Below, one piece after another: positions 24,980 to 25,064 of a stretch of DNA of 64,000 bases. The notes under the pieces are model-generated. The model did not search any database. It had not been told where the DNA came from and was given only the letters and a program-made list of their open reading frames with translations. A program made the translations under genes and the position numbers. Source of the stretch: Bdellovibrionales bacterium. Lineage in GTDB: Bacteria; Pseudomonadota; Alphaproteobacteria; UBA9219. Position 1 is the stretch's first letter. Every line of letters begins with the position of its first letter. Where the stretch lies: positions 261,256 to 325,255 of the forward strand of contig JBAZRW010000001.1 of NCBI GenBank assembly GCA_041662785.1. The letters run 5' to 3'.

Positions 24980-25064
24980 ATTCAGGATTCAGGGTTCGGC
25001 ATTCAGGGAAATAATCCCGCTGCGATGCTCGTTTTCTGAATCCTGAATCCCGAATCCTGAATCC
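24980..25064. repeat. Heptamer-repeat hairpin in the groES-groEL intergenic region
   Basis: (ATTCAGG)x4 with variants at 24980-25008, mirrored by (CCTGAAT)x4 with variants at 25036-25064, around a 27-nt loop. It starts 2 nt after the groES stop. Confidence 0.7.

Follow-up and report, generated by a model that had tools for sequence, protein, structure and literature searches.

Why does the gap between groES and groEL, two co-oriented genes of one operon, hold a long hairpin assembled from seven-nucleotide repeats? The question is raised by a stretch of 64,000 nucleotides from a Bdellovibrionales bacterium (assembly GCA_041662785.1, contig JBAZRW010000001.1; the whole stretch is referred to as the window), in which tandem heptamers set in directly behind the groES stop codon and recur in inverted form ahead of groEL. 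Our analysis establishes that this element is real, non-random and conserved, and that it belongs to a kind that is described and still unexplained, namely inverted heptamer arrays between genes. For more than ten years, heptamer repeats have been recorded in Xanthomonas, cyanobacteria, Beggiatoaceae and Geobacter as sequences to which no function is assigned. What is new here is a copy at one orthologous site, in an essential operon and throughout a clade, which permits a test of covariation and concerted evolution and for which close relatives with a cleanly lost hairpin provide natural knock-outs. Also new are the strong polarity and the core preference of the class to which it belongs (TYAG first, CTRA second), which had gone unremarked although such elements are abundant between phage genes. 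The best explanation for the window element is that it is a vertically inherited copy of a widespread between-gene repeat.

Direct reading of the sequence places the groES stop codon TAG at 24976-24978, followed by a single C at 24979, and the spacer up to groEL measures 115 nt (24979-25093). The hairpin occupies 86 nt of it (24980-25065), starting 1 nt past the stop codon and ending 28 nt ahead of the groEL ATG (Table 1). A first-pass annotation, made from the letters of the window, had proposed four tandem heptamers after the groES stop, mirrored beyond a 27-nt loop by four complementary heptamers, which together could form a stem of about 28 bp in the bicistronic mRNA. The left array reads as proposed; on the right, four inverted units are indeed present at 25035-25064, with the correction that the first of them is TCTGAAT and not CCTGAAT. 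Both arrays were detected by Tandem Repeats Finder (period 7, 4.0 and 4.3 copies), and a repeat finder returned arms of 30 nt that are 83% complementary and lie 29 nt apart. This inverted repeat starts at 24977, the last two bases of the groES stop codon being able to pair at the base of the stem. Loop and stem were borne out by RNA folding and by compensatory changes in eight lineages: the fold comprises 28 pairs, arranged as 10+8+10 around two 1x1 mismatches and including 4-5 G-U pairs, and its energy of -41 to -43 kcal/mol (z = -4.05 and -4.80) was equalled by none of 200 shuffled sequences. At the apex, GGGAA has alternative partners in the folds, either AUCCC (25014-25018), giving a mini-hairpin, or UUUUC (25032-25036), lengthening the main stem. 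Across the window, ATTCAGGATTCAGG with up to two mismatches is matched four times where 0.41 matches are expected, and three phased TCAG units are matched four times where 0.13 are expected, every one of the latter at this locus; left-arm TCAG matches are on the + strand and those of the right arm on the - strand.

The usual groES-groEL spacing of about 50 nt, against which the spacer had been called unusually long, is confirmed by 64 other alphaproteobacterial loci among the matches listed, in which the median is 50.5 nt (inter-quartile range 40-63 nt) and the few long spacers contain ordinary GC-rich hairpins without heptamers. The GroES search that supplied this background set also contributed L024 (see below). 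An assembly artefact, considered in the first-pass annotation, is ruled out: an independent Logan contig (L001, from SRR18595301) is identical to the window across the whole hairpin, and seven further assemblies, made in separate projects, carry homologous hairpins. The Logan contig ends at its position 1413, equivalent to window position 25066 and hence precisely at the 3' end of the hairpin, where the inverted repeat likely broke the assembly graph. Within 765 kb of fetched loci, period-7 arrays were present only in the groES-groEL spacers of one clade, and neither Tandem Repeats Finder nor the phased-TCAG search found a second period-7 array in the 64-kb window; at the density of comparable Geobacter elements (about one per 500 kb), zero further copies are expected in the DNA searched. 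No Rfam family reached its gathering threshold for the region or for the whole window, the best match being a microRNA model of the generic-hairpin type (22.7 bits against a threshold of 80). Repetitive extragenic palindromic (REP) sequences and bacterial interspersed mosaic elements (BIME), i.e., imperfect palindromes of about 35 nt with a GTAG head and many copies, were rejected as an identity, as the element has no such head and is present in a single copy in the window.

A heptamer hairpin is found at the same site in eight species-level lineages of a Micavibrio-like clade, represented by the window, L002, L003, L008, L009, L170-172, L182 and the more distant L024. The arms read CATTTAG x4 opposite CTAAATG x7 in L002, GGGTCAG / CTGAACC in L003, GATCAGA / TCTGAAC in L009, GGGTTAG.. 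/ CTGACCC.. in L170-172, GCATTCA GCATGCG.. / CGAATGC.. in L182 and GAGGCTG / AGCCTCT in L024; in L008 the left arm is intact and the right arm decayed. Folding of six other lineages yielded z values between -2.8 and -9.6; the L182 hairpin was identified by reading the sequence. In all hairpin-bearing lineages the element sets in 1-8 nt past the stop codon. Five related lineages (L004-7, L173-175, L176-177, L178-180 and L181) have spacers of 27-49 nt without a hairpin, and in alignments the hairpin appears as a clean indel of 80-100 nt. When it is subtracted, 25-47 nt of spacer remain (29 nt in the window), which matches the entire spacer of the hairpin-less relatives, and the element therefore behaves as a self-contained module. 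One such relative, L006, is 96% identical to the window in GroES and the N-terminus of GroEL and has a spacer of 36 nt; all that is left of its hairpin is TAAGCATTCC, from the start of the left arm. Absence from close relatives had been named in advance as an observation that would speak against the element; it has in part been made, and what it demonstrates is dispensability, without calling the reality of the element into question.

In a neighbour-joining tree calculated from GroES and the GroEL N-terminus, hairpin-bearing and hairpin-less lineages are interleaved. The simplest history is a single gain near the base of the clade followed by at least two losses, with L024 as a separate or older case. 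None of 80 metagenome loci had groES-groEL adjoining the upstream neighbour, a SpoU methylase gene. In L003 (GCA_964652235.1), groEL was called as two open reading frames (ORFs) of 283 and 287 aa (3437-5121), which suggests a frameshift or sequencing error. Seven 'GroES' proteins of 150-159 aa from ENA (P0001-P0007), which outscored the query's own sequence, were rejected as homologues; they are tandem chimeras of two GroES fragments and probably metagenome misassemblies.

Seven of the spacers were aligned (alignment A1), and a consensus structure was derived with RNAalifold. It contains 23 pairs, ten of which have changed on both sides, and an explicit count in A1 found 86% of the cells paired; when the partner is shifted by one column, pairing falls to 54-63%. 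The covariation score of 0.455 compares with 0.325 +/- 0.034 in shuffled alignments and was reached by none of 500. An apical GGGAA/UUCCC helix is common to all lineages (A1 columns 42-46 with 69-73, paired in 88% of cells). At the four-fold degenerate sites of groES and groEL, the window shares only 55-67% identity with its relatives; with silent-site divergence that large, unmaintained arms would have drifted apart and the palindrome would have decayed. The pairing of the arms is thus actively maintained. At the same time, the units themselves turn over. Within a species they differ at 1.69 of 7 positions, and between species at 3.07 positions when units of the same ordinal position are compared and at 3.10 when they are not (permutation p < 0.0002). 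The smaller difference within species, together with the irrelevance of ordinal position between species, indicates that units are turned over and homogenised, and this concerted evolution, with both arms following, fits replication slippage. The pooled unit consensus is SRKTCRG. The earlier suggestion of a minisatellite prone to changes in copy number holds only at the evolutionary scale, between species, where unit numbers differ (four opposite seven in L002), units are homogenised and clean absences occur; within species no copy-number variation was seen, L170, L171 and L172 from three samples being identical to one another and L001 to the window. RNA hairpins can arise and be kept up by template switching (PMC8794818). 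Since switching between the arms can itself yield 'compensatory' changes, the covariation shows maintenance and is not proof of selection.

Scanning of IMG/VR viral contigs for four phased TCAG units followed, after a gap of 10-40 nt, by three phased CTGA units put the element into a wider context. At least 120 loci with TCAG before CTGA and 89 with TTAG before CTAA stand against five and seven, respectively, for the reversed orders (CTGA .. TCAG and CTAA .. TTAG), and other cores were rare (TGAC .. GTCA, four loci; GCTG .. CAGC, five; ACTC .. GAGT, none; TCAC .. GTGA, five). These hairpins form a specific polar class, the 5' arm being built on TYAG and the 3' arm on CTRA, and the pattern reads the same on both strands. 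Their geometry was derived from 154 distinct TCAG-type copies among the matches listed, with crude ORF calling. Not one of the 154 lies inside an ORF, and those flanked by ORFs on both sides are mostly found between co-directional genes (55, compared with 11 convergent and 15 divergent pairs). The median distance is 7 nt from stop codon to hairpin and 17 nt from hairpin to the next start, the modal number of units per arm is four, the stems are not followed by an enrichment of T (2.6 of 8 bases), and the variable positions are Watson-Crick paired in only 52% of cases. The window element fits the class (a minimum of 3-4 TYAG units in phase, then a loop not exceeding 50 nt and at least three phased CTRA units) with one TCGG/CCGA variant unit per arm, and its position, 1 nt past the stop and 28 nt before the ATG, agrees with the class geometry of a few nucleotides after a stop and about 10-30 nt before a start. 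L002 fits the TTAG/CTAA subtype; L024 lies outside the class and represents the rare GCTG-first type.

Some viral contigs carry the hairpin many times. The 34-kb contig IMGVR_UViG_3300045936_000120 (L203, L221, L222) has at least 24 TCAG...CTGA matches counting both strands, i.e., roughly a dozen sites, with TCAGCNN as the unit, many loops like TAAACCGC and hairpins in most of its co-directional gene gaps. No cultured relatives of the multi-copy viral contigs were found, only distant matches to tape-measure proteins. On a further contig (IMGVR_UViG_3300006175_000271; L214, about 4200-4278), a hairpin of GGGTTCAG x4 and CTGAACC x3 encloses a loop with GGGAAAGAATTTCCGC. This is very similar to the apex sequence of the groESL hairpin in L009 (GGGAAGACATTTCCGC), which may be chance or shared ancestry. 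When the hairpin was compared by BLAST with phage and plasmid records, matches were confined to short direct arrays from Nostoc, Xanthomonas and Burkholderia. On plasmid pNe_2 of Nostoc edaphicum (L312, 1090-1115 and 1500-1570; nine matching places in the record), a (CTGAATC)x7 array precedes the start codon of a DUF87 gene by about 35 nt, and two to three TCAG units (ATTCAGGAGTCAGAAT) are present just past the stop codon of the upstream gene, about 400 nt from the CTGAATC array. The polarity is that of the hairpin class, but the two arrays are split.

What, then, does the hairpin do between groES and groEL? The reading that we favour, with a probability of roughly 0.4, is that it acts post-transcriptionally as an intercistronic insulator or processing structure that sets the output of GroES versus GroEL; an action at the RNA level and an effect on expression are what we infer here. 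The element should be transcribed within the operon because it is located between the stop and the start codon of two co-oriented genes with one promoter candidate and one terminator. Inside the groES-groEL mRNA it would fold into an imperfect hairpin of about 28-33 bp that extends from the groES stop to 28 nt ahead of the groEL start and leaves the ribosome-binding site of groEL free. Such a structure could act as a barrier to 3' exonucleases or as a site for double-strand-specific cleavage; RNase III and selective processing call for some 20 bp or more of near-continuous double-stranded RNA in a polycistronic transcript, and the window offers 28 pairs interrupted by two 1x1 mismatches. In addition, a ribosome terminating on groES would have to melt the base of the stem, because the final two nucleotides of the stop codon are part of it. 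Exonuclease block, cleavage or ribosome obstacle, any of these would set how much of each chaperonin subunit is made from a single transcript. The 7-nt units would probably be made and kept alike by replication slippage, and the complementarity of the arms would probably be kept by selection for pairing, aided by template switching between them. If the hairpin does tune the GroES:GroEL ratio, it is a simple case of stoichiometry control by an evolvable repeat.

Several observations weigh against this proposal. The element is dispensable, as is evident from its clean absence in five relatives, among them L006 with 96% protein identity; in L008 the right arm has decayed. No signal was found that would distinguish one strand from the other: on the + strand, the 22 G-U cells do not clearly outnumber the 15 A-C cells, the fold energies of + and - strand are similar, and the viral copies exhibit no G/C asymmetry relative to the sense strand. 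A role at the level of DNA is therefore conceivable. Furthermore, a model in which any stable stem suffices leaves unexplained why one core and one polarity, TYAG...CTRA, dominate in the viral contigs.

This last point leads to the main alternative, which we regard as rather unlikely, namely that the phased TYAG/CTRA heptamers are a platform recognised by its sequence, the reader being a putative RNA- or DNA-binding protein or the ribosome. Of the two arrays, the one adjoining the downstream start codon would do the work, the complementary 5' array would mask or modulate it, and the hairpin would be secondary. The viral bias in core and polarity argues for such a platform, as does the weak pairing of the variable positions in the viral copies; the latter comparison is affected by the scans themselves, which required an exact core and thereby bias core versus variable positions. 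The lone array ahead of a start codon on the Nostoc plasmid and the unit YCTGAAT in Geobacter metallireducens are in line with a platform, and TAACTGA arrays just upstream of start codons have been reported for Beggiatoaceae (PMC4679880). However, the groESL clade keeps the pairing and not the core: L024 is built from GAGGCTG, and L182 and L008 mix TCAG and TGCGG. Nor was a candidate factor found. A more far-reaching idea, which we consider doubtful, is that phased TYAG/CTRA hairpins constitute a cross-phylum, phage-enriched intercistronic signal for a conserved putative factor that reads it in one orientation only, be it the ribosome or a protein that binds single strands or duplexes. Should a trans-acting reader lie behind the polarity, a new regulatory system would be indicated, and if the signal is indeed shared across phyla, the groESL copy in the essential, highly expressed operon of Micavibrio-like bacteria is a tractable, vertically inherited instance of it.

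It is unlikely that the hairpin is a functionless by-product, that is, a slippage-prone heptamer microsatellite that became palindromic, is kept complementary by quasi-palindrome template switching and does little harm in a spacer. Among the long simple repeats of prokaryotes, heptamers are the commonest, which has been attributed to polymerase slippage (Mrazek 2007, as cited in PMC4679880), and the template switching mentioned above can make and maintain hairpins without selection (PMC8794818). The losses in close relatives and the decay in L008 are in line with such an origin, and the mismatches are mostly transitions in both directions, as the G-U and A-C counts illustrate. On the other hand, the element has stayed at one site and kept the same size, about four units in each arm, in lineages that are 33-45% diverged at silent sites, and long palindromes are prone to deletion, so that persistence calls for selection or very frequent repair. 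The viral copies, too, are non-random, intergenic and abut stop codons in compact genomes, and their strong polarity bias is hard to obtain from slippage alone.

Very improbable is a leaky intrinsic terminator or attenuator that would yield more groES-only than full-length groESL transcript. A U-rich stretch does follow the stem in five lineages (window, UUUAAAAU; L182, UUUAAAAC; L002, UUUUAAU; L009, UUUUUAAAU; L170, UUUCUUCUU). Nevertheless, the window tail (TTTAAAAT) has three U only and that of L024 none, the viral stems lack T enrichment, and a terminator scan (GC-rich stem, at least five T in eight bases) did not call the hairpin whereas it did call the genuine terminator at the end of the operon (Table 1). 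A surplus of groES transcript would also be contrary to the GroES-GroEL subunit ratio of 7:14 in the complex. We give hardly any credence to a G-quadruplex formed by the 5' arm, as proposed for the four-unit GGGNATC repeats of Xanthomonas and Nostoc, for although there are four units and the left arms of L170 and L003 have at least four tracts of three or more G, the window arm offers GG, GGG, GG and GGG instead of four such tracts, L002, L182 and L008 have no G tracts, and the complementary arm would out-compete a weak quadruplex. Selection of the 3' arm for stop codons in all three frames (CTGA/CTAA) was rejected, since it leaves the polarity unexplained and a GTGA core is rare; CcrM sites (GANTC), CsrA-type GGA, RNase E RN-WUU and Shine-Dalgarno-like motifs occur in the units of some species only and were dropped as general explanations.

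The layout of the locus is summarised in Table 1. Outside the stem, the remainder of the spacer is about as long as the entire spacer of hairpin-less relatives. The promoter candidate upstream of groES resembles the alphaproteobacterial RpoH consensus, and the terminator behind groEL serves as an example of a genuine terminator in this genome.

Table 1. Features of the groES-groEL operon and of its intercistronic hairpin (window coordinates).
Feature	Position	Strand	Sequence or size	Remarks
Candidate sigma-32-like groESL promoter	24482..24510	+	CTTGAA, 16 nt, CTTACAT	inferred from sequence
groES	24652..24978	+	108 aa	ORF list; Pfam Cpn10 on identical protein
Hairpin, 5' arm	24980..25007	+	ATTCAGG 24980-86, ATTCAGG 24987-93, GTTCGGC 24994-25000, ATTCAGG 25001-07	core TCAG/TCGG
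Hairpin, apex	25006..25036	+	GGGAA 25006-25010	GGGAA conserved; sequence between pairing partners variable
Hairpin, loop	25008-25034	+	27 nt	
Hairpin, 3' arm	25035..25064	+	TCTGAAT 25035-41, CCTGAAT 25042-48, CCCGAAT 25049-55, CCTGAAT 25056-62, CC 25063-64	core CTGA/CCGA
Spacer tail	25065..25093	+	TTTAAAATCAAC, 29 nt	unstructured; outside hairpin
groEL Shine-Dalgarno sequence	25080-25086	+	AGAGGAA	outside stem
groEL	25094..26746	+	550 aa, ATG at 25094	ORF list
Operon-end bidirectional intrinsic terminator	26781..26813	+	CCCCTTGG..CCAAGGGG then TTTTT	terminator scan

GroES itself ends in a Cys- and Lys-rich tail (24940-24975) with variants in relatives such as CCKGGNKSCCKK. A Cys-rich tail is common to the clade (window, L002-L009, L170-L182) and can serve as its marker; the usual ending of alphaproteobacterial GroES is ..KKAA, and the tail of the clade is reminiscent of metal-binding GroES tails, e.g., that of Helicobacter HspA. 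The 5' leader of groES (24540-24610) is long, with a T-rich GTTTCT x3.8 (24546-24569) opposite the A-rich GAACAAGAAAAACAAAAGAGAA, and a leader hairpin is possible. On both flanks of the operon there are REP-like palindromes unrelated to the heptamer hairpin. Upstream, a palindrome with 36-nt arms that are 92% complementary (GGGATCCCCGCTTTCGCGGGAATGAC ... GTCATCCCCGCGAAAGCGGGGATCCC; 23581-23682) falls into the predicted N-terminus of a Wzy_C-like ORF on the - strand (22345-23748). As this ORF comprises 467 aa compared with 403 aa in relatives, its true start is probably located downstream and the palindrome is probably intergenic. Just past the groEL terminator, a nested palindromic element of about 180 bp (26843-27021) has GTCATCCCGCAC and GTGCGGGATGAC as outer arms and a perfect 18-nt pair (26874-26891 / 26941-26958) as inner arms; it is REP- or miniature inverted-repeat transposable element-like.

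How does the hairpin compare with known systems? Like the controlling inverted repeat of chaperone expression (CIRCE), the operator of HrcA, it is an inverted repeat associated with groESL, and CIRCE acts on both DNA and mRNA. Unlike it, CIRCE sits upstream of groES and is unrelated in sequence. In the 64-kb window, the operator (TTAGCACTC-N9-GAGTGCTAA) has no match with up to three mismatches. A good CIRCE operator (CTAGCACTC-N9-GAGTGCTAA) is present upstream of groES in L003 (2880-2910), where it co-occurs with the heptamer hairpin. Its presence in L003 and not in the window indicates that heat-shock control seems to differ within the clade.

Intercistronic stem-loops are exemplified by the REP/BIME hairpins of Escherichia coli operons, the hairpins of the puf operon and the intergenic RNase III sites of phage T7. 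REP hairpins within 15 nt of a stop codon were reportedly found by Liang, Rudd and Deutscher in 2015 to lower expression of the upstream gene, and Segal and Ron (1995) are reported to have found that, in Agrobacterium, groESL mRNA undergoes cleavage in the region separating the two cistrons. Selective RNA processing and stabilisation at intergenic stem-loops has been described as the means by which subunit stoichiometry is set (PMC4423207). These cases are precedents for the post-transcriptional role favoured above. The window hairpin resembles these structures in being stable, in its position just past the upstream stop codon and between co-transcribed genes for subunits of one complex, and in a double-stranded length sufficient for RNase III. 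The established examples differ in that they are not built from tandem repeats, have no conserved phased core and owe their assignment to experimentally shown activity where the window hairpin is known from its sequence; compared with REP, the window hairpin has neither a GTAG-like head nor a high copy number.

Closer in construction are the heptamer repeats, among which the cyanobacterial short tandemly repeated repetitive (STRR) sequences are counted. GGGNATC heptamers form intergenic repeats of unexplained function in Xanthomonas and Nostoc (Rehm et al. 2015, PMC4692102), and in Beggiatoaceae, cyanobacteria and Bacteroidetes start codons are closely preceded by TAACTGA arrays (MacGregor 2015, PMC4679880). 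Shared with the window element are the 7-nt unit, the preference for four units, the transcription and the mention of inverted stem-loop copies, and with the TAACTGA repeats also the CTGA core. Those heptamers are mostly single direct arrays with hundreds of copies per genome, whereas the window element is a matched inverted pair at one conserved locus across a clade and has no G3 tract in each unit.

The comparison extends furthest to the 'class 3 putative global regulator binding sites' of Geobacter metallireducens, paired five-unit heptamer arrays of MTYCTGA on opposite strands (Aklujkar et al. 2009, PMC2700814, Additional file 9), of which eight dispersed copies are present in one genome and for which binding of integration host factor (IHF) or HU was proposed without any test (PMC2700814). 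They differ from the window element in having five units instead of four, in eight genomic copies as opposed to one in 64 kb, and in belonging to a different phylum. Their total length is 72-115 nt, and when we rebuilt them on one strand, they gave hairpins of 76-115 nt with -23 to -37 kcal/mol. They occupy gaps between genes, for the most part genes of the same direction (moaA-mosC, cbiG-cobQ, proB-proA), and their right arm stops shortly ahead of the ribosome-binding site of the next gene. The window likewise has inverted arrays with TCAG first and CTGA second, 86 nt in length and placed between the co-directional groES and groEL. Read in the MTYCTGA register, its right arm is TTTCTGA ATCCTGA ATCCCGA ATCCTGA, two units being exact and two off by one base, with the left arm as the complement; the window unit ATCCTGA fits MTYCTGA, and the 14-mer TCTGAATCCTGAAT matches Gmet_I303B exactly.

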